Source: Nibricoccus sp.
GTDB taxonomy: Bacteria > Verrucomicrobiota > Verrucomicrobiia > Opitutales > Opitutaceae
Assembly (NCBI GenBank): GCA_047602425.1
Contig: JASGHG010000001.1
Location: 512,001-576,000, forward strand
Length of the DNA stretch: 64,000 nucleotides
Direction: 5' to 3'
Shown here: positions 41,278 to 62,348 of the stretch, piece by piece
Numbering within the stretch: position 1 is the stretch's first letter
How the letters are laid out: each line of letters begins with the position of its first letter
Notes under the pieces: model-generated
The model's input: only the letters and a program-made list of their open reading frames with translations
Told to the model about the DNA's origin: nothing
Database searches by the model: none
Translations under genes and position numbers: made by a program

Positions 41278-43314
41278 ATGAAACGCTTTTTTCTTTGCCT
41301 TCTCTTCACTTCGGTTGCCTTCACGGCTTGCGCGGCACGCACGGCGGAAGGAGCCGATAAATCGCTTTCGCCCTATTTTTGGGTGAAGCCGTCCAGCGTC
41401 GCAGGCTCGGATTCGCCGGGCGTTGCCGACGTGTTACCGCTTAAATCCACTTCGGTGGAGGCAAGCGTCGCTGGTGTGATCGCGGATGTGCGGGTTACAC
41501 AGGTTTACACCAATTCCGGCAATGTGCCGCTCGAAGCGGTGTACATATTTCCTGGTTCGACTCGGGCGGCGGTCCACGGATTGACGATGATGGTCGGCGA
41601 GCGACGGCTCGAAGCTAAGATTAAAAAGCGCGAGGAGGCGCGGCGCACTTACGAAGCAGCCAAGGCCGAGGGCAAGACCACGTCGTTGCTCGAACAGCAA
41701 CGTCCGAATGTTTTTCAGATGAACGTCGCCAATATTCTTCCGGGCGACGAGGTCCGGGTGGAATTGCGCTACACCGAACTGCTCGTGCCGACCGATGGAG
41801 TTTATGAATTTGTTTATCCCGGCGTGGTTGGGCCGCGTTACTCGAACAAGCCGGCCTCTGGCGCCGCACCGGAAGACAAGTGGGTCGCAAATCCGTATCT
41901 GCGCAAAGGGGAAATCGACTCCGCACGCTATCAGCTCACCGTGCAGATCGCGGCCGGCCTGCCGCTTCAAGAGGTAAACTGCCGCACGCACCCAACCAAG
42001 ATCACCTACACCAACGAGCGCGAAGCTCGCATCGCCACGGATCCTGAAGACATGTCTGCTTCAAACCGCGATTTTATTTGCAGTTATCGTCTGGCCGGCG
42101 GTGCGATTCAGTCAGGTGTTCTTATGGCCGAGGGAAAAGATGAAAATTTCTTCCTTCTGATGGTGCAGCCGCCGGCGCGTCCCCTGCCCTCGCAGATTCC
42201 GCCACGCGATTTCATTTTCATCGTCGATGTGTCAGGCTCGATGCACGGGTTCCCGTTGAACATTTCGAAAAAGCTCGTGCGTGATCTGCTCACTGCATTG
42301 CGTCCGACTGATACGTTCAATGTTCTACTTTTCGCGGGTGACAGCCAGGTACTCGCCCCCGCGTCGCTTCCTGCCACCACCGAAAACATCAGCGCAGCCA
42401 TCGATCTGCTCGACCAGCAGAAAGGCGGAGGCGGCACCGAGTTGCTCCCCGCACTCAAAAAAGCCTTCGCGCTGCCGCAGGATGAAAACGTTTCGCGTAC
42501 CGTAGCGGTCATCACCGACGGCTATGTCGACATCGAGGCGGAGGCTTTCGAGCTCGTCCGCACCAATCTTGGGCGGGCCAACGTGTTCGCCTTTGGCATC
42601 GGCTCGTCGGTCAATCGCCATTTGATCGAAGGATTGGCCCGCGTCGGACAAGGCGAGCCATTTATCGTCACCGAGCCCGACAAGGCGCCAGTCATGGCAG
42701 CGAAATTTCGCGACTACATTTCCACGCCCGTGCTGACGCGCGTGGCGATCGATTTCGGCGGGCTGGAAACCTATGATGTCGAGCCGACTGCCATTCCGAA
42801 CGTGCTCGCGCAGCGGCCGGTGATTGTGTTCGGCAAATGGCGTGGAATGAAAACCGGCGCGATCACTGTGCGTGGGCGTTCGGGAGATCAGGCTTTCGCG
42901 GCGACCCACGATTTGGCCCAAGCCACTGTGCTTCCCTCGGCGGATGGGCTCGCCCACCTCTGGGCGCGCACCCGGATCGCCCAGCTTGGCGATCTGGTGA
43001 ACTTGCGGTCATCTGATGAACGTGTCGCACAAATCACCAACCTCGGACTCACCTACAATTTGCTTACCAAATATACGTCGTTTGTGGCGGTCGACGAAGT
43101 CGTGCGTCGGACCACGACGGATCTTAAGACCGTAAAACAACCGTTGCCGCTGCCGCAGGGCGTCGAGAATACGGCCGTCGGTGAAGACGTGCCAACCTCT
43201 CCTGAACCATCGACCATCGGCATGTTGGGAATTGGGGGAGCGTTCGTACTGATGAAACTGCTGCGGAGAAGGAAAAAGTACGGCGTGAAAAATGTTTGTT
43301 TTAACAGGAGGTAA
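41278..43314 (+). CDS. VIT + von Willebrand A domain protein with C-terminal PEP-CTERM-like sorting signal
   Basis: Signal peptide; VIT (LEAVYIFP, F.MNVANI.PG); MIDAS DVSGSM, GGGTEL, ITDG; tail VPTSPEPSTIGMLGIGGAFVLMKLLRRRKK. Confidence 0.92.
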   Translation: MKRFFLCLLFTSVAFTACAARTAEGADKSLSPYFWVKPSSVAGSDSPGVADVLPLKSTSVEASVAGVIADVRVTQVYTNSGNVPLEAVYIFPGSTRAAVHGLTMMVGERRLEAKIKKREEARRTYEAAKAEGKTTSLLEQQRPNVFQMNVANILPGDEVRVELRYTELLVPTDGVYEFVYPGVVGPRYSNKPASGAAPEDKWVANPYLRKGEIDSARYQLTVQIAAGLPLQEVNCRTHPTKITYTNEREARIATDPEDMSASNRDFICSYRLAGGAIQSGVLMAEGKDENFFLLMVQPPARPLPSQIPPRDFIFIVDVSGSMHGFPLNISKKLVRDLLTALRPTDTFNVLLFAGDSQVLAPASLPATTENISAAIDLLDQQKGGGGTELLPALKKAFALPQDENVSRTVAVITDGYVDIEAEAFELVRTNLGRANVFAFGIGSSVNRHLIEGLARVGQGEPFIVTEPDKAPVMAAKFRDYISTPVLTRVAIDFGGLETYDVEPTAIPNVLAQRPVIVFGKWRGMKTGAITVRGRSGDQAFAATHDLAQATVLPSADGLAHLWARTRIAQLGDLVNLRSSDERVAQITNLGLTYNLLTKYTSFVAVDEVVRRTTTDLKTVKQPLPLPQGVENTAVGEDVPTSPEPSTIGMLGIGGAFVLMKLLRRRKKYGVKNVCFNRR

Positions 43315-43370
43315 CAGAGGAAAAGGAGATAGAATTTCTTAACCACTTATGTTCACTGAAAGGCACTGAT
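43299..43370 (+). repeat. Adjacent 9-bp and 10-bp periodic repeat arms
   Basis: TTTTAACAGGAG GTAACAGAG GAAAAGGAG, then TTAAC CACTTAT gtt CACTGAA agg CACTGAT. Confidence 0.65.
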
Positions 43371-43429
43371 TCGGCATCTTAAAGACGGAGAGCGCAGCGT
43401 GGGGCGGGCGCTCAACACGCAACGCTATC

Positions 43430-43454
43430 AACCCGCACGGAGTGCGGGTTCTAC
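43430..43454 (-). repeat. GTAG-type REP element
   Basis: Minus strand GTAG AACCCGCAC TCC GTGCGGGTT. Confidence 0.75.
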
Positions 43455-43462
43455 CTCGAACG

Positions 43463-44347
43463 ATGAAACAAACTACAAGCAGCAGTTCCCTGAACAGCCT
43501 CTCATCGATGGTTGCGGACGCCTCGGAGAGGCGTCCCTACCGACGAACCTTGTTCAGCTGCCGCCTCGCGTTCGTGCTTGCGCTCTGCCTCGCCTGCTGG
43601 CCGGTGGCGCGGTGGTATGTGGCGCGCGTCAGCGATGGCTCGGATGAGCCGTGGGGGTTGGCCGCGTTGGTAGCAGCTTTGCTTTTCGCGCCGCGCGAGG
43701 GGTGGAATGAACCACTCGGTAGAGGTCGTCTGTGGATGCTGTGCGGGCTTCTGACGATTTATGTGGTTAACTTCCATTGGCTGCCGCCACTGGGGCATGC
43801 GCTTTTGTTTGTCACCGCGCTCGCCGTTGCGGTGAGCCGGCGTGGATTTCCGCTGGCTTGGTGGGGATTGTTGGTTTTGTCGCTACCGTTGATTGCAACG
43901 CTGCAGTTTTATCTGGGTTATCCACTGCGGCTCGCGACGACCGCGTTATGCGTGCCGCTTCTGCGACTGGGTGGTTTGTACGTCACAGCCGATGCCACCG
44001 CGCTGCGCTGGGCGGGCGAGATGGTTGTTGTCGATGCGCCATGCAGCGGAATTCATATGCTGTGGACCGGTCTGTTTCTCGCCGCGGCACTCGCGTGTTG
44101 GCAAAAACTCGACGGGCGTGGAACGCTGCGGCTGTTGCGTTGGGCAAGCGGGGCGGTCTTCGTCGCAAATGTACTACGCGCAACGGCGTTGTTTTGCATC
44201 GAGGCGAGGATCTGGCCGTCGCCGGCTTGGGCGCACGAGGGCGTGGGACTGGTGCTGTTCGGAGCGGCGTCGGGAATTATTTATTTCGCGAGTCAAAGCG
44301 GCGCGCCCGGCGGTCGCGCCCTACCTTCAAGGCAGACCGCCATATGA
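43463..44347 (+). CDS. Exosortase/archaeosortase family protein (XrtQ-like, VIT-associated)
   Basis: Multi-TM; catalytic Cys DAPCSG, Arg NVLR, His AHEGVG; DGSDEPWG motif; start uncertain (43463 or 43508). Confidence 0.88.
   Translation: MKQTTSSSSLNSLSSMVADASERRPYRRTLFSCRLAFVLALCLACWPVARWYVARVSDGSDEPWGLAALVAALLFAPREGWNEPLGRGRLWMLCGLLTIYVVNFHWLPPLGHALLFVTALAVAVSRRGFPLAWWGLLVLSLPLIATLQFYLGYPLRLATTALCVPLLRLGGLYVTADATALRWAGEMVVVDAPCSGIHMLWTGLFLAAALACWQKLDGRGTLRLLRWASGAVFVANVLRATALFCIEARIWPSPAWAHEGVGLVLFGAASGIIYFASQSGAPGGRALPSRQTAI
43516..43540 (-). repeat. GTAG-type REP element inside the exosortase 5' end
   Basis: Minus strand GTAG GGACGCCTC TCC GAGGCGTCC. Confidence 0.75.
44300..44324 (-). repeat. 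GTAG-type REP element inside the exosortase 3' end
   Basis: Plus strand GGCGCG CCCGGCGGT CGCGCC CTAC. Confidence 0.65.
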
Positions 44348-44892
44348 AAATCTCTCTGCTCTTTTTGAGCCTCTGTGTAGTCGCTGCATGGATACCGGCT
44401 TGGTCGCGATCGTCATATGAGGATGGAGCGTCAGCGGAAGCGTTTCCGGGTTGGAATGCCGCACCCGTCCCAAGCGACATGACGCCTTTGACGCCGGGGG
44501 AACGCGAGGCGCGTTTCGCGGCGGGCTTTCCAGGAAAAATCGGCGTGTTCACCGATGGCGAGCGGACGTACGTCCTTCGCTGGGTGTGCTCGCCAACACG
44601 GAAACTTCATCCCGCCGCCGATTGTTTGCGTGCGCTCGGTTACGGCGTAAAGCCGACGCCGATCTTCGCCGAGGCCAATGGAGCACGTTGGGGTACGTCG
44701 CGCGCGCAACGCGGCCAGGAAGAGCTGCGCGTGCGCGAGCGGATCGTCGACTCAGCGGGGAATGCGTGGACCGACGTGTCGGCGTGGTACTGGTCCGCAA
44801 CGCTGGGCCGCAGCGCGGGACCGTGGTGGGCCGTCACGATTTTCGAGCGGCCAAACCATGGCCGTAAAAACGAACCATTTTACAGAAGTTAA
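44344..44892 (+). CDS. Exosortase-associated EpsI-like periplasmic protein
   Basis: ATGA overlap with exosortase; N-terminal hydrophobic segment; TRKLHPAADCLRALGY fits an EpsI-type HxxxxCxxxxG motif. Confidence 0.7.
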   Translation: MKISLLFLSLCVVAAWIPAWSRSSYEDGASAEAFPGWNAAPVPSDMTPLTPGEREARFAAGFPGKIGVFTDGERTYVLRWVCSPTRKLHPAADCLRALGYGVKPTPIFAEANGARWGTSRAQRGQEELRVRERIVDSAGNAWTDVSAWYWSATLGRSAGPWWAVTIFERPNHGRKNEPFYRS

Positions 44893-45004
44893 CGAAGGAA
44901 ACAAAGAGTCTCACCTCGTGCCTTGTCTGGGCTCCATGCGTGGACCTGAAAAAACGAGCCGGACATACCAACATTGCTTCATTCCCTTCGTTCTCTTCTG
45001 TTAA
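44878..45004. repeat. ~125-bp inverted-pair element with 9-bp periodic arms
   Basis: Left TTTTACAGAAG TTAACGAAG GAAACAAAG; right CTTCATTCC CTTCGTTCT CTTCTGTTAA. Confidence 0.75.
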
Positions 45005-45086
45005 CCAGCTCGAAAATCCACCGGTCTTACCAATGGTGATTTAGCAGAAAATCAAGGTGGAGCGCGTTGACCTGACTTGCACCCCA

Positions 45087-45254
45087 CCCAAGGCTGTCCT
45101 GTCGCAGCCCAAGCCTCTGCTGCAAATGTCCGGGATACCCCTGCGCACACCCATGGTACAATTGTCGCGACCCATGGTACGCTTCTTCAAGCCCAAGGGT
45201 CGTTTGATCGGACCCATGGTCGCTCTGTGCGAACCCATGATCCAGTTGCAACCG
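45087..45254. repeat. 8 x 21-bp degenerate tandem array (CCCAWGG-N5-YTG-N6)
   Basis: Cores at 45087, 45108, 45129, 45150, 45171, 45192, 45213, 45234. Confidence 0.8.
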
Positions 45255-45368
45255 ATAAGGAGTTCCCGGATGCAACGTAATTCAACATGACAAAACTGGC
45301 GCGCTGCGAAGGTTGACGTCACACAATTGTTGCGGGCCAAGTGGGATCTGCGTTCTTTCCGTTTCTGC

Positions 45369-46109
45369 TTACTCTCGATCCTCGCGCAGCAGATGTCCGA
45401 GGATGCGTTCCCGACTGTTCAAGAAATCGCGAGTGACCCGAAAATGATCGGTCTGCTCATATTCCACTCGTTCCATGCCGTTCGGACCCACTTCATAAAT
45501 CGTCGCATCGGGGAATCCCATGAGGATTGGAGAATGAGTGGCCATGATCACCTGTGATTTTTCGGCGAGAAGTCGCTGCAAAATCACCAAGACGCTCAAC
45601 TGCCGCTTCGGCGACAAGGCCGCCTCGGGTTCATCGAAAATATAGAGCCCGTTTCCTCGGAGGCGGTTTTGCAGCAAGGCAAGGAATGCTTCGCCGTGCG
45701 ATTGTTCATGCAGGGATTTTCCACCGTAACTAGCGTGATGAGCCAAATCGAGACGCTCCACCTCCGTGGCCATGCCATAGAAACTTTCAGCGCGGAGAAA
45801 AAAACCGTCCGTCGGCCGACGCACACCTTTTTCCAAGACCAGACATTCGTTCAACGACGAATGGGTTTCTTTGGTGCGAAATCGGAAATTCTTGCTGCCG
45901 CCCTCAGCGTTAAAACCCCACTTCACCGCAATCGCTTCGATCAACGTCGATTTCCCGACACCATTTTCTCCGATGATCGTGGTGAGGCCCGGAGCAAATT
46001 CGAGTCTTTCGAGGTGACGAACCGCGGGAACGCAGAATGGATACGTCTCAGGCGACGCTACCTTTCTTCGATCAAGTCGGATAGCGCGCAAAAAGCCGTG
46101 ATCCTTCAT
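45369..46109 (-). CDS. AAA/ABC-type ATPase (COG3910-like)
   Basis: GENGVGKST, GFNAEGGS, FFLRAESF, QSHGE, FDEPEAALSP, ATHSPIL. Confidence 0.9.
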   Translation of the reverse strand: MKDHGFLRAIRLDRRKVASPETYPFCVPAVRHLERLEFAPGLTTIIGENGVGKSTLIEAIAVKWGFNAEGGSKNFRFRTKETHSSLNECLVLEKGVRRPTDGFFLRAESFYGMATEVERLDLAHHASYGGKSLHEQSHGEAFLALLQNRLRGNGLYIFDEPEAALSPKRQLSVLVILQRLLAEKSQVIMATHSPILMGFPDATIYEVGPNGMERVEYEQTDHFRVTRDFLNSRERILGHLLREDRE

Positions 46110-46119
46110 GGCGCAGATC

Positions 46120-46542
46120 TTATTCGCCGATCACCGTCACGATCAAGGTGCGGGTGTGCGGGCGCGTGCGGTGTTCCCAGAGATACAATCCCTGCCACGT
46201 GCCAAGGAGCATTCGGCCTTCGGCGAAGGGGATGGTTTCGCTCGTTCGCGTTAAAGCCATCTTGATATGACTGGGCATATCGTCGGGGCCTTCGAGTGTG
46301 TGTTCGAAATGCGGGTCGTTTTCCGGAACTAGTCGCTCAAACCAATGCTCCAGATCATGCCGCGCGGTCGGATCGGCGTTTTCCATGATCACCAGGCTCG
46401 CGCTCGTGTGCTGGCAGAAAATCGTCACCGTGCCGCGCTTGAGTCCGCTGCGTGAAAGTTCGCTAGCAACGGTGTCAGTGACGTCGTGCAGACCCTTGCC
46501 GCGCGTGTGGACAGTGAAAGCGGCTTGGTGAACAGAAGACAT
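46120..46542 (-). CDS. yjbQ: Secondary thiamine-phosphate synthase family protein YjbQ (UPF0047)
   Basis: HTSASL..ENADP, H..EGPDDMPSHIK, LGTWQG.YLWEHR. Confidence 0.93.
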   Translation of the reverse strand: MSSVHQAAFTVHTRGKGLHDVTDTVASELSRSGLKRGTVTIFCQHTSASLVIMENADPTARHDLEHWFERLVPENDPHFEHTLEGPDDMPSHIKMALTRTSETIPFAEGRMLLGTWQGLYLWEHRTRPHTRTLIVTVIGE

Positions 46543-46567
46543 GGGGAAGACGGAATTAAACGATCCG

Positions 46568-46691
46568 TTTTACAGAAGGCAACTAGGGGAACGAAGCGTC
46601 ACCGGAGAAAAGGCATCGCTCCTGCATGGCTTGGAAACTCGACGGGGAAAAACTACCGGCTCTTCGTTTCCTTCGTTATCTTCTGTTTAAA
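46568..46691. repeat. ~125-bp inverted-pair element with 9-bp periodic arms
   Basis: Left TTTTACAGAAG GCAACTAGG GGAACGAAG; right CTTCGTTTC CTTCGTTAT CTTCTGTTTAAA. Confidence 0.75.
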
Positions 46692-46714
46692 GAGATCGGA
46701 AAACAAAAACCTTC

Positions 46715-46840
46715 TTACAGGAGAAAACCGAGGGAACGAAGAAGGAAGATCGGGGTCGCCGTTTTTTCGCTCTCCCACGTTGATGAGCAACTGCAATGGC
46801 TGTCCGCTCCTCCTTCGTTGCCTCTATCTCCTCCTGTAAA
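46715..46840. repeat. ~125-bp inverted-pair element with 9-bp periodic arms
   Basis: Left TTACAGGAG AAAACCGAG GGAACGAAG; right CTTCGTTGC CTCTATCTC CTCCTGTAAA. Confidence 0.7.
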
Positions 46841-46852
46841 TAAATAGTCCAC

Positions 46853-47782
46853 CTAGCCTTCCAGGCCGAAGACCGCTTTGACGTAATTGTCGATGGAGAA
46901 GGGTTGCAAATCCTCGGGCTGTTCGCCGAGGCCGAGGAAATAGATCGGGAGTTTCAACTGGCGGTAGATGCCGACGAGGGCGCCGCCGCGGCTGGTGCCG
47001 TCGAGCTTGGTCACGACCAAGCCGGTAAGGCCAAAACTGGCGTGAAACGCCTTCGCCTGGTCGATCGAGTTGGAGCCAATGCTGCCGTCGACCACGAGCC
47101 AGCGGTGATGCGGCGCGGTTGCGTCGTTTTTCTGAAGCACACGGCGGATTTTTGCGAGTTCCTCCATGAGGTTGCTCTTCGTGTGAAGACGTCCGGCGGT
47201 GTCGACGATGAGGTAGTCGCGTTTGCGGGAGTTGGCGGTCTGCCAGGCGTCGAAGGCCACGGCAGCGGAGTCGGCGCCGGTGTGGCTGGCGACGATTTCA
47301 ATATCAAGGCGCGTGGCCCAGGTCTTGAGTTGCTCCACGGCGGCGGCGCGGAAGGTGTCGCAAGCGGCCAGCGTGGTGGTCTTGCCGTCTTCCTTCAGTT
47401 TCCAGGCGAGCTTGGCGGAGGTGGTGGTCTTGCCGGAACCGTTGACGCCGATCATGGCGATGACGGTGGGTTTGCCGGGTTCGGCCTTGATGGCGTCGAA
47501 CGAACCTTCGGCTCCCGCCAAGACACGCTTGAGTACAGCGGCGCCGATGGCGGCGGCGTCCTGGCCGCGGAGGGATTTATCCTTTTTGTAGGCGGTTTTG
47601 ATTTCCTCGAGAATTTCCTCGGTCGTCTCGACGCCGAAGTCGGCGGTGTAGAGCGCTTCTTCAAGCGTGTCGAGGGACGATGCGTCGATCGGTTTCTGGC
47701 CAAAGATCGCGGCGGTCTTCGCGGCGATGGCGGAGACGGTTTTGGCGAGGCCGTCTTTGAATTTTTTAAAGAGACCGAACAT
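46853..47782 (-). CDS. ftsY: Signal recognition particle receptor FtsY
   Basis: GVNGSGKTT, DTFRAAA.EQL, DTAGRL, TKLDGTSRGG. Confidence 0.97.
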   Translation of the reverse strand: MFGLFKKFKDGLAKTVSAIAAKTAAIFGQKPIDASSLDTLEEALYTADFGVETTEEILEEIKTAYKKDKSLRGQDAAAIGAAVLKRVLAGAEGSFDAIKAEPGKPTVIAMIGVNGSGKTTTSAKLAWKLKEDGKTTTLAACDTFRAAAVEQLKTWATRLDIEIVASHTGADSAAVAFDAWQTANSRKRDYLIVDTAGRLHTKSNLMEELAKIRRVLQKNDATAPHHRWLVVDGSIGSNSIDQAKAFHASFGLTGLVVTKLDGTSRGGALVGIYRQLKLPIYFLGLGEQPEDLQPFSIDNYVKAVFGLEG

Positions 47783-47790
47783 AGGCGTGA

Positions 47791-47889
47791 TTTTTTAACC
47801 GCGAATGAGCGCGAATTGACGCGAATAAGAAAAACTCAAAGAGGAAAACAGGCGCACGCAAACTGGCTTCGTTCACGTTGATTTGCGGG
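47791..47889. repeat. Inverted-pair element with 10-bp periodic arms
   Basis: Left TTTTTTAAC CGCGAAT gag CGCGAAT tga CGCGAAT; degenerate right arm GTTCACG ttg ATTTGCGG at 47871-47888. Confidence 0.65.
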
Positions 47890-47918
47890 CATGACACTTC
47901 GCTCGAAACGCGGTTATT

Positions 47919-48371
47919 TTACTCGGCGACCTTGCGCGCGTCGCGGCCGAGTTGGTCTTTCAGGCGGTCGAGGATGCCGTTGATGAAGCGCTTCGCGTCG
48001 GCGTTGGAGAATTGTTTGCTCAGATCGATCGCTTCGTTGATCGAGACGACGGGCGGGACGTCTTTGCGATAAAGCATTTCGTACATTGCGAGGCGGAGGA
48101 TCGCGAGGTCGATCTTGGCGATGCGATCGAACTCCCAGTTGTGCGCGAGGCCTTTGATGCGAGCATCGAGATCGGCGACGTTTTGAATCACGCCTTGGAT
48201 GATTTCTTCGCCGTAAGAATAAGTTTCGCGCGGTTTTTCCTGAGCCTCGAAAAAGGCCTGGAGATCGTTCGCGAGATTGGTCGGAGCGTTGAGGCTCCAG
48301 GCGAAAAGATATTGAAGCGCGGCGACTCGGCCGGCCCGGCGTTGGGCGAATTGCGGTTTGCTGCTGCTCAT
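47919..48371 (-). CDS. nusB: Transcription antitermination factor NusB
   Basis: RRAGR..ALQ.L, W..DRI..ID.AILR, V.INEAI.L.K.F, FINGILD. Confidence 0.95.
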   Translation of the reverse strand: MSSSKPQFAQRRAGRVAALQYLFAWSLNAPTNLANDLQAFFEAQEKPRETYSYGEEIIQGVIQNVADLDARIKGLAHNWEFDRIAKIDLAILRLAMYEMLYRKDVPPVVSINEAIDLSKQFSNADAKRFINGILDRLKDQLGRDARKVAE

Positions 48372-48841
48372 TTTGAAAAACGTTTCCTCAATTCGGCCAT
48401 TTCGAGGGCCGCACGCGCGAACTCGGCGCCGCGGTTGATTTTTCCGAGGCAACGATCCTCGGCTTGTTTCAGGTTTTCGGCAACCACCACGCCGTTAATC
48501 ACCGCAATGCGGCTGTCGAGGGCAACGCGCATGAGACCATCGCCGGAGGCTTCGGCGACGAGTTCGTAGTGTTTCGTATCGCCACGAATAATCACGCCAA
48601 GGGCAACGATCACGTCGGGCTTGGTCGCGGAAGCGAGCCACTGGGCGGCGCTGGGAAGTTCGTTCGAGCCGGGCACACGGTAGACGCGGATTTTTTTCTC
48701 GGGCACGCCCGCTGAACGCAGTTGTTCGAACACTTGGTGCAACAACGCGTCGACCAGCGTCGGGTTGTAACGCGCCGCCACGATGCCGACCGAAAGGCGG
48801 GCACCGTCAACAGTCACTTCATGTGGAGCATCGAGACTCAT
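48368..48841 (-). CDS. ribH: 6,7-dimethyl-8-ribityllumazine synthase
   Basis: IVAARYN, VPGSNELP, LGVIIRGDTKHY; 4-bp overlap with nusB. Confidence 0.95.
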   Translation of the reverse strand: MSLDAPHEVTVDGARLSVGIVAARYNPTLVDALLHQVFEQLRSAGVPEKKIRVYRVPGSNELPSAAQWLASATKPDVIVALGVIIRGDTKHYELVAEASGDGLMRVALDSRIAVINGVVVAENLKQAEDRCLGKINRGAEFARAALEMAELRKRFSK

Positions 48842-49077
48842 GCGAGGAACTGTTCTGTCTGCGCGCCGACCGTGCAAGGAGCAAACTCTTTTCTGAAGCC
48901 AGGAAAAAACCTCTTCCAAGCCCTCGCACACTATGCCGCGTAACGCAGCCGGACAGGGAGAAGCCCGTCGAAATATTTTCTTGCACTCGTGTCCGAATTT
49001 CTTCCGTTATGACCTCGCTGGTGCGCTCACACCCACAACACGAGCCTCAGCAAATACCCCAACAACCAACCCCAGCC

Positions 49078-61250: not shown

Positions 61251-62348
61251 ATGCAATTGACCAAACATTGGGCCGCCGTTCTCAACGATTACGTGATCGA
61301 CCTCGCGTGGTCGCCCGACGGCACACAACTCGCCGCCGCCTCCGCCGCCGGACCTGTATCCATTTTCAAGGGACAAGATGGCGCCAAACTTCACGAACTC
61401 CCTGGCCACGACGATGGCACGAACTGCCTCGCCTGGCGGCCAGAAGCCGGAAGTCAGAAGCCAGAGGCCAGAAATCAGAAAACAGAACAGACGCCTCCGA
61501 ATAGCGACCTAGCCGCTGGCCTCCGGCCTCTGACTTCTGGTTCCACCCTCGCCACCGGCGGGCAGGATGGAAAAGTTAAACTCTGGGACCCCACCGCCGG
61601 CCAGCACACCGCCACTGCCGAACTCGGCAATGCCTGGATCGAGCATCTTGCCTGGCGGCCCGACGGCGCAACGCTCGCCGCCGCCGCTGGACGGGAACTC
61701 TTTTTCCTTAACGCCGATGCTTCGCTTCGTCATCGCTTCAAGCCCGCGCCCAAAACACTGTCTGCCATTGCCTGGCAGCCCAAGGGCGGTTGCCTCGCCG
61801 CGGCGTATTTCGGCGGCGTTTGCCTGTGGGATGCCGACGATTTCATCGCTCAAAAAGAATACGCCTATGGCAACGGCATCCACGCCCTCGTCTGGTCACC
61901 CGATAGCAAATGGTTGGTCTCCGGCAATCAGGACCCGAGCGTGCACCTCTGGGTGCCCGAGACCGATCTCGAACTCAACATGAGCGGATACGAAGGCAAG
62001 GTGAAGGAACTTTCCTACGACCGAACCAGTCGCTGGCTTGCCACGGGCGGCGGCAAGGACGCTTGCATTTGGGACTGCTCGGGCGACGGCCCCGAGGGAC
62101 GCGAGCCGCTGATGTTTCCGCACGATGCCAAAGTCTGTGCGGTCGCTTTCCAGCGCTCGCATGGCTTGCTTGCCAGCGCTTCGCAGGACGGCACGCTCAT
62201 GCTCTGGAGTCCGGACCGCAAACAGCCGCTGATGGCCACCGTGCGCATGCCCACGCCTGCCACAAAACTCAGTTGGTCACCCAATGACGAACTTCTCGCC
62301 ATCGGCAGTGAAAAAGGCGCCGTCTACGTGCTGCGGTGCGAAAACTAA
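61251..62348 (+). CDS. WD40-repeat protein
   Basis: LAWSPDG, LATGGQDGKVKLWD, WSPDSKWLVSG, LASASQDG. Confidence 0.9.
   Translation: MQLTKHWAAVLNDYVIDLAWSPDGTQLAAASAAGPVSIFKGQDGAKLHELPGHDDGTNCLAWRPEAGSQKPEARNQKTEQTPPNSDLAAGLRPLTSGSTLATGGQDGKVKLWDPTAGQHTATAELGNAWIEHLAWRPDGATLAAAAGRELFFLNADASLRHRFKPAPKTLSAIAWQPKGGCLAAAYFGGVCLWDADDFIAQKEYAYGNGIHALVWSPDSKWLVSGNQDPSVHLWVPETDLELNMSGYEGKVKELSYDRTSRWLATGGGKDACIWDCSGDGPEGREPLMFPHDAKVCAVAFQRSHGLLASASQDGTLMLWSPDRKQPLMATVRMPTPATKLSWSPNDELLAIGSEKGAVYVLRCEN
61441..61539. repeat. Inverted pair of heptamer arrays in-frame inside the WD40 gene
   Basis: 7 x CAGAAGC-like units at 61441-61489 and 4 reverse-complement units at 61512-61539. Confidence 0.8.

Follow-up and report, generated by a model that had tools for sequence, protein, structure and literature searches.

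Gene-less periodic-arm elements in a Nibricoccus genome belong to a class linked to GxxExxY genes

Introduction

Transposition systems are generally assigned to the DDE, HUH, tyrosine and serine classes. Miniature inverted-repeat transposable elements (MITEs) that derive from insertion sequences (ISs) are non-autonomous elements with inverted ends, which occur beside a gene-bearing parent with the same ends. Here we describe short elements bounded by inverted, periodic arms in the genome of Nibricoccus sp. (5.16 Mb in one contig, C1; labelled G000, with relatives numbered from G001 onward). Seven arms of the main family lie in the window, the 64,000-bp stretch C1:512001-576000 that was analysed, where they form one lone arm and three inward-facing pairs, A, B and C. 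Positions without a contig name are those of the window, and L-numbers label loci extracted from relatives.

The closest described architecture is that of REPtrons and TIRtrons, in which one small gene lies between inverted repeats (PMC3733652; this and the other sources are cited from the portions available to us). Repetitive extragenic palindromic (REP) doublets forming hairpins (REPINs), in which compensatory changes are common (PMC3116915), are served by REP-associated tyrosine transposases (RAYTs), and the attC sites of integrons are imperfect inverted repeats of 57-141 bp (PMC3053210). The GxxExxY family, or PDDEXK_3 (PF13366), is widespread and listed with function unknown (PMC3424549), and one published mention of it, in the text available, concerns a reverse transcriptase neighbour. 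In a search that left most subscription journals and supplements outside, we found no published description of a GxxExxY periodic-arm system, and the papers found contained no link between PDDEXK_3 or GxxExxY and repeats. The accessible parts of PMC12306157 and 10.64898/2026.09.22.753630 do not mention the nuclease family in the terms searched.

An initial annotation of the window had described the three pairs and the lone arm as a non-autonomous mobile or recombination-site system. The inward-facing pairs and the lone arm, at the stop of a VIT gene, were re-found; the feature is real and belongs to a class of periodic-arm elements linked to GxxExxY genes. Our preferred reading, to which we assign a probability of roughly 0.55, is that the elements are gene-less copies of a cassette whose protein would bind the arm words and cut at a low rate, with arm-bounded DNA being copied into gene junctions.

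Results

The arm family and its gene-bearing cassettes

Each arm consists of a T-run followed by three 7-bp words (most commonly ACAGAAG, AACGAAG and AACGAAG) at a 9-bp period, with free dinucleotide spacers. An iterated weight matrix returned 75 arms in the genome at a score of at least 20 and none in two 200-bp block shuffles, and a strict pattern gave 30 matches compared with none in three shuffles. Further copies, the absence of which would have spoken against the initial annotation, are thus present genome-wide. At a score of at least 17, 77 arms were found, 50 of which make 25 inward pairs less than 600 bp apart, 24 gene-less and one gene-bearing. The copies are spread over 48 clusters in all gene orientations, their gene context being taken from a crude open reading frame (ORF) caller only. 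Two word subtypes, ending in AAG or GAG, were distinguished, and the subtype is the same in both arms of 23 of the 24 gene-less pairs. The initial annotation had described degenerate arms of constant phasing and length; the three words at a 9-bp period held, while the constant length did not, since only half of the gene-less pairs (12/24) measure 125-134 bp and the full range is 71-289 bp.

The 25th pair (C1:1214741-1215220, 480 bp, arm scores 46 and 50) encloses exactly one gene, C1:1214775-1215179, and lies between pheS and pheT. The gene encodes a 134-residue GxxExxY protein (PDDEXK_3; PF13366, TIGR04256; E 5.5e-35), which otherwise matched only Cas_Cas4, weakly, and no transposase family. 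The elements had been supposed to depend on an enzyme encoded elsewhere, for which this gene, found within the same arms, is a candidate. A search for a recombinase or HUH partner of the arms found none, and none of the 13 G000 ORFs that adjoin widely spaced arms or lie between them matched a nuclease or transposase family. Inverted arms flank all five GxxExxY genes of the genome, and the 7-bp word, repeated every 9-10 bp, differs from gene to gene; the genes lie at the junctions gatA/gatB, nadE/hemL, pheS/pheT, argF/argG and oppD/oppF. The words of the four other cassettes are dispersed genome-wide (86, 33, 85 and 13 matches vs 0, 6, 39 and 0 in one shuffle). An Rfam search of the five loci gave three sub-threshold matches only.

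The predicted structure of the 134-residue protein (predicted local distance difference test, pLDDT, 96.7) has a PD-(D/E)XK fold. The folds closest to it are PD-(D/E)XK nucleases, the best structural match being 4ic1 (Z 7.1, root-mean-square deviation 3.3 over 100 aligned residues); no match reached Z 8 or more, and the protein therefore has no specific solved relative. Foldseek returned nothing at E<=0.001 for the model, and no solved structure was matched by sequence. The G000 and G002 orthologues differ mostly at third codon positions (identity 0.90/0.94/0.56 over the three codon positions). Viral contigs gave only 2 distant relatives of the protein, and plasmids gave 8 records, all below 60% identity.

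Covariation between protein residues and arm words

We examined 181 GxxExxY loci and kept 162, 7 being broken or short and the remainder duplicates. The clade of the pheS/pheT protein comprises 109 of these, in which the catalytic residues D72 (109/109), E82 (109/109) and K84 (108/109) are preserved. An arm, recognised with a pattern written after looking at the data, was readable on at least one side of the gene in 94 of the 109 loci and on both sides in 62. In these 94 loci, residue 12 follows base 5 of the word, being serine in 68 of the 70 loci with A and threonine in 23 of the 24 with G (91/94 concordant). Residue 132 follows base 2, with asparagine in 61 of 66 loci with A and another residue in 27 of 28 with G (88/94 concordant). 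The two columns rank first by mutual information, and a tree from which both were left out has 4-5 and 10-11 changes of the respective traits. Outside the clade, T12 was found in 20 of 24 loci with GAG words and in 1 of 7 with AAG words. The residue-base link is strong in counts and formally unproven; from these sequence comparisons, the protein likely binds the words.

In a side observation, a ~110-bp unit with an arm pair inside is present in three or more tandem copies next to a GxxExxY gene of the clade at one locus, L162.

Distribution across genomes

The arm pattern occurs in 68 of 121 genomes of the family, at 0-126 copies per genome and with none for the reversed control, and in 12 of 151 genomes of the phylum. 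The N132-type gene was defined by protein features alone. At least five arms besides the gene's own were found in 20 of the 21 genomes that carry an N132-type gene (median 16), compared with 25 of the 100 without one (median 0), and no more than 5 arms were found in any of the 16 genomes that lack a GxxExxY match altogether.

Filled, empty and swapped junctions

The pheS-pheT junction was compared in 30 loci. It is nearly closed in 9 (a gap of at most 24 bp) and carries the pheS/pheT-type cassette in 2 (G000 and G002), a gene-less pair of the same arms in 1 (G009, 82 bp) and a different GxxExxY cassette in 1. A further locus has a small unrelated ORF between other arms, 6 have four-helix-bundle-like ORFs with 7-bp periodic flanks, 9 have other fillers of 48-156 bp, and 1 is without pheT. 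The four-helix-bundle filler of L028 (1111-1500) was scanned and matched TIGR02436; those of L037, L039, L041, L043 and L054 were assigned by eye. The unrelated ORF, at L051:1250-1567 (G035), is of membrane type, lies between CACAGAG-type arms, had no NCBIfam match at 1e-25 and is possibly cargo.

Eight G000 elements were then compared with five relatives. At site 4167967, G001 and G004 have no insert, and G003 and G006 have arms of a different type. G003 shares the element at site 4169783; G001 and G002 have nothing there, and G004 has a different arm type in its place. Sites 2863168 and 3308087 are each absent from three relatives, and site 2853151 is replaced in G004. Conversely, a 128-bp copy of G004 is absent from G000, the gap differing by 129 bp. 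Three of the eight elements have no syntenic relative, their flanks mapping far apart. The family thus varies in presence and absence, its junctions being empty, filled or occupied by another arm type in relatives. Several inserts begin on a stop codon or directly beside one, and their other end adjoins a start codon. The ends of the 24 pairs showed no excess of direct repeats that would indicate target-site duplication (p 0.43), the copies being old and the empty-site relatives ~75-89% identical. Among the joints listed from one DNA sequencing run, in which this genome has a small share, none crossed an element, a result without weight either way.

At the window junctions, G001 and G002 lack element A behind the orthologous gene, and no C-type arm was found downstream of ftsY in 19 relative loci. 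The ftsY-yjbQ and A junctions have no synteny in any relative fetched, so the fully conserved synteny that would have spoken against mobility was not seen. In G004, yjbQ, the AAA match and ftsY are scattered over three places, and yjbQ has no flanking arm in the three relatives fetched. The elements had been said to bracket a two-gene block: a 21-bp array, an AAA ATPase and yjbQ do lie between A and B, while the block as a moved unit is not demonstrated. These comparisons would fit an AAA-yjbQ block that is foreign at the window locus, and do not in themselves demonstrate its movement between arms. Elements at C1:492248, 1430721 and 4421725, together with window A and B/C, lie at synteny breaks relative to all relatives tested, a count with no matched null behind it.

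Interiors of the gene-less copies

Of 16 mid-size interiors, 13 contain TTCCA or TGGAA, compared with 5 of 32 flank controls. A symmetric interior profile with a TTCCAA..TGGAA centre, evaluated leave-one-out, scored above shuffles in 11 of the 12 copies that measure 125-134 bp; this family consensus is shared by A (z 3.8) and by B (z 4.9), and only C lacks it (z 0.1), its interior being unrelated to those of A and B. The earlier description of the interiors as unrelated is thereby corrected for A and B. The profile also matched 4 of 7 copies from relatives and gave no match away from arms at E<1. As this shared profile is absent from the gene-bearing element, A and B, judged by their sequences, are descended from one gene-less, once near-perfect palindrome.

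This bears on the alternative that every gene-less element is a scar left by its own gene-bearing insertion after loss of the gene, so that only the full cassette moves, which we regard as improbable. Such scars would agree with the gene-less 82-bp filler of G009 at pheS-pheT, where G000 and G002 carry the gene, with the spread of lengths from 71 to 289 bp, and with G000 site 4611891, which is a shortened form of a G002 copy. They would not account for an interior common to 11 of 12 same-size copies and foreign to the gene-bearing element, whose interior ends score -3.5 on the profile, nor for its match at two G002 sites outside the training set (z 4.8 and 3.9). For A and B this alternative is largely refuted by the interiors; for C and the short copies it may still apply.

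Gene-less copies drift unevenly. In 14 orthologous arm pairs, 216 of 224 core word positions (96%) are the same, compared with 39 of 56 spacer positions; at one orthologous site the spacers had seemed conserved, which did not hold for the 14 pairs together. For two orthologous pairs, the interiors are the same in 58 of 112 columns and in 44 of 70, a level that resembles nearby third codon positions (0.55). Kept words between drifting spacers are the pattern that would be expected of protein-binding words.

Pairing, and the enzymes of known systems

Compensatory pairing between the arms, set beforehand as a test, was not found: none of 20 predicted pairs is changed on both sides in 15 copies, the variable positions lie in unpaired columns, and the two arms of a pair resemble each other no more closely than shuffled partners do (p 0.22). 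Against dinucleotide shuffles, the hairpins of the three window elements have z-scores of -2.1, -2.0 and -3.8.

These results weigh on the comparison with REPINs moved by a RAYT, an HUH tyrosine transposase, which had been suggested for the elements and which we consider very improbable. The layout does agree, with inverted ends, a variable spacer, intergenic location and long persistence (PMC3116915; 10.1101/2021.07.10.451892), and the genome has four Y1_Tnp matches. However, none of the four is flanked by arms (the nearest arm is 4.6-85 kb away), each arm is a direct-repeat array and not a short palindrome, and the compensatory changes common in REPINs are missing. The likeness therefore holds for the layout and fails for the HUH enzyme, the palindromic ends and the pairing. 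By eye, three of the four Y1_Tnp matches have GTAG-type palindromes in their flanks.

The comparison with attC sites fared no better. That the elements are integron sites through which one of the genome's integron integrases excises or shuffles the AAA-yjbQ block would be favoured by two integrase matches above the TIGR02249 cut-off (C1:5142000-5148000 and 917800-920500), by sizes within the attC range and by the synteny breaks at the window junctions and at 3 of the 8 other elements tested. Against it, the core sites RYYYAAC and GTTRRRY occur together in 0 of 24 pairs, and the AAC...GTT ends noted initially are present at both ends in only 2 of 24. There is no arm pair near either integrase, the nearest arm being 81 kb from one and only lone arms lying 1.7-2.7 kb from the other, and the copies are dispersed in 48 clusters in all gene orientations. 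We give this explanation hardly any credence. The integrase at C1:5142000-5148000 has a run of short ORFs upstream of it, one gene being duplicated.

The elements of the window

The lone arm (43298-43328, + strand, matrix score 39.9) is of the GAG-word subtype and includes the stop codon of the VIT/VWA gene (41278-43314). At the VIT-exosortase junction, G001 has almost no gap and G002 an intact pair of another arm type; behind the lone arm, at 43335-43520, we noted by eye an apparent decayed pair of other words, of the same type as the intact pair of G002.

Element A (44876-45007) is gene-less and has AAG words, with arms at 44876-44906 (+, score 45.9) and 44977-45007 (-, score 37.3). The stop codon of the upstream ORF (44890-44892) falls inside its left arm. 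Its interior (44907-44976) is a decayed copy of the palindromic family consensus with a TTCCAA..TGGAA-like centre and is not derived from the nuclease gene. Element B (46566-46692), likewise gene-less and with AAG words, has arms at 46566-46596 (+, 39.9) and 46662-46692 (-, 44.5), lies 23 bp before the yjbQ start and has full-length matches of 70-71% to C1:492240-492377 and to contig C3 of G002. Element C (46711-46843) is gene-less with mostly GAG words; its arms, at 46711-46741 (+, 38.9) and 46813-46843 (-, 31.8), were both typed GGA, and it lies 9 bp from the ftsY stop. A lone arm of a sister family, with CGCGAAT words at a 10-bp period, lies at 47791-47826 (+) between nusB and ftsY and has the same word type as the arms of the argF/argG GxxExxY gene. 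The nusB-ftsY junction (47783-47918; L007, L008, L011) is nearly empty in several family members, and its end in G001 and G002 consists of an apparent 3' portion of a GxxExxY gene together with arms that have a further word.

The neighbouring genes are those of a VIT/VWA PEP-CTERM protein, an exosortase Q-like protein and its partner, the AAA ATPase, yjbQ, ftsY and nusB. Rfam gave nothing at E<=1 in 42000-49000. Between 43200 and 47000, a promoter scan found 0 promoters, and 7 terminator-like sites were found vs 5.6 in shuffles, none at an arm end.

Two other arrays were seen in the window. Eight degenerate 21-bp units, phased by CCATGG/CCAAGG, occupy 45088-45255 inside a 77-residue ORF (45057-45290) of 7-residue repeats, which has no Pfam or NCBIfam match and is distinct from the arm family; a similar array lies at C1:1468773. 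A WD40-like reading frame contains, at 61439-61487, an array of the 7-bp GCCAGAA type and a short mirror copy.

MITE-like units and nested repeats

G002 and G003 share an 85-bp family of arm pairs, in which the interiors of 11 copies average 78% identity. We had considered this family as recent copying by the nuclease and dropped the idea, as a larger unit of ~165 bp encloses most of its copies; the ends of this unit resemble IS630-type MITE ends. In G000, a single unit with similar ends, around a GTAG palindrome, was seen at C1:916208-916375. Several arm types stand in a row or nested at C1:2902340-2902800 and at L265, L276, L291 and L393, partly in common between G000 and G002.

Discussion

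Mobile cassettes or host-kept sites

The reading of the elements as gene-less cassette copies draws on the same arms around the gene, the residue-base covariation, the intact catalytic residues, the empty and filled junctions, the failure to detect a target duplication and the kept words. In the proposed mechanism, the full cassette form is the GxxExxY gene between inverted arms, of which the pheS/pheT cassette is the single example of the main family in G000. Residue 12, in the first helix, would read word base 5, and residue 132, in the C-terminal tail, base 2. The nuclease would cut at or near the arms at a low rate, and arm-bounded DNA would be copied into gene junctions, with insertion driven by repair. 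Gene-less copies would be mobilised in trans, and landed copies would persist across species, decaying except for their words. Direct binding, cutting, mobilisation in trans and repair-driven insertion are the steps that we infer.

Several observations weigh against this reading. Within the clade, 15 of the 109 loci have no readable arm, and on well-supported branches the covariation yields no more than 2 and 4 independent pairs (p 0.5 and 0.125). G000 has GAG-word arms (C and the lone arm) but only an S12 gene, which is of the AAG type. Within genera, the link between gene and arms goes up in 10 cases and down in 4 (p 0.18), kin not being independent. In seven genomes with at least 30 arms, among them the one-contig G091 (50 arms) and the two-contig G067 (41), the query found no N132-type gene, and the five that were rechecked have only distant GxxExxY genes with other arms (best match at most 47%). 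Gene loss with persistence of old copies would explain arms without the gene; so would independence from it. The four-helix-bundle fillers of pheS-pheT lack a nuclease fold, so arm-bounded cassettes need not encode a nuclease. Most of the 15 aligned copies of the 85-bp family lie inside the ~165-bp unit, which has its own TA-flanked inverted ends (L245-L263, L395-L398); judging from this arrangement, another transposase could have copied the family, which may have hitchhiked.

A possible, if unlikely, alternative is that the words are binding or RNA-processing sites kept by the host at gene junctions, to which GxxExxY proteins bind, for example to regulate or punctuate transcripts, without moving them, spread being due to other transposases or recombination. 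This would sit well with core words that are 96% the same at orthologous sites where third codon positions are 55-69% the same, with arms that persist in genomes without the matching gene, with the placing of the clonal G002/G003 family inside a larger MITE-like unit, and with the frequent nesting of arm pairs with other repeat types. Yet a MITE-like outer end was found near only 1 of the 77 arms of G000, leaving 76 without one. The copies also lack compensatory pairs and any greater likeness between an element's own arms, genomes without a GxxExxY gene have almost no arms, and the catalytic triad is invariant.

Implications

Movement of the elements by the GxxExxY protein would mean a transposition chemistry that fits none of the DDE, HUH, tyrosine and serine classes and an undescribed kind of selfish DNA, and would account for much of the intergenic repeat content of this bacterial family. 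We see about an even chance that the 134-residue PD-(D/E)XK nuclease is the only enzyme behind a new mobile-DNA class, defined by a word code, insertion at stop/start junctions without target duplication, gene-less pairs copied in trans, and several systems per genome competing for junctions. A widespread family of unassigned function now has a candidate substrate, and two single-residue predictions follow, pairing S12 or T12 with word base 5 and N132 or D132 with base 2. If the enzyme does not move the arms, the long-lived conserved words still point to a protein-DNA or protein-RNA function at operon junctions. The window locus adds the gene-less side of the class, namely a subfamily with a shared non-gene interior and words kept while spacers drift, and it adds a caution, as some copies travel inside other MITE-like units.

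Comparison with known systems

The elements resemble attC sites in being imperfect inverted repeats of similar size beside genes (PMC3053210) and differ from them in being dispersed in clusters and not arrayed behind an integrase. With IS-derived MITEs they have in common gene-less copies and a gene-bearing parent with the same ends; here, however, no target-site duplication was detected among the old copies, the parent is a 134-residue PDDEXK_3 protein without a transposase match, and the interior is not a deletion remnant of the gene. REPtrons and TIRtrons come closest, since their inverted repeats also occur alone, repeat-specific gene lineages exist within a genome, and gene and repeat are not always together (PMC3733652). 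The TIRtron genes described are all tyrosine transposases, and the available text of that work describes neither periodic word arrays nor residue-base covariation. To REPINs and RAYTs the likeness extends to intergenic units of ~100 bp with conserved inverted ends, a variable spacer, many copies and vertical persistence (PMC3116915; 10.1101/2021.07.10.451892), and to a gene flanked by the same repeat. They are set apart by the partner, a PD-(D/E)XK-fold protein in place of an HUH tyrosine transposase, and by the arms, which are three direct-repeat 7-bp words where a REP is a ~14-bp palindrome. Finally, RAYTs are described as non-jumping, whereas the gene cassette described here is found at different junctions in different genomes.

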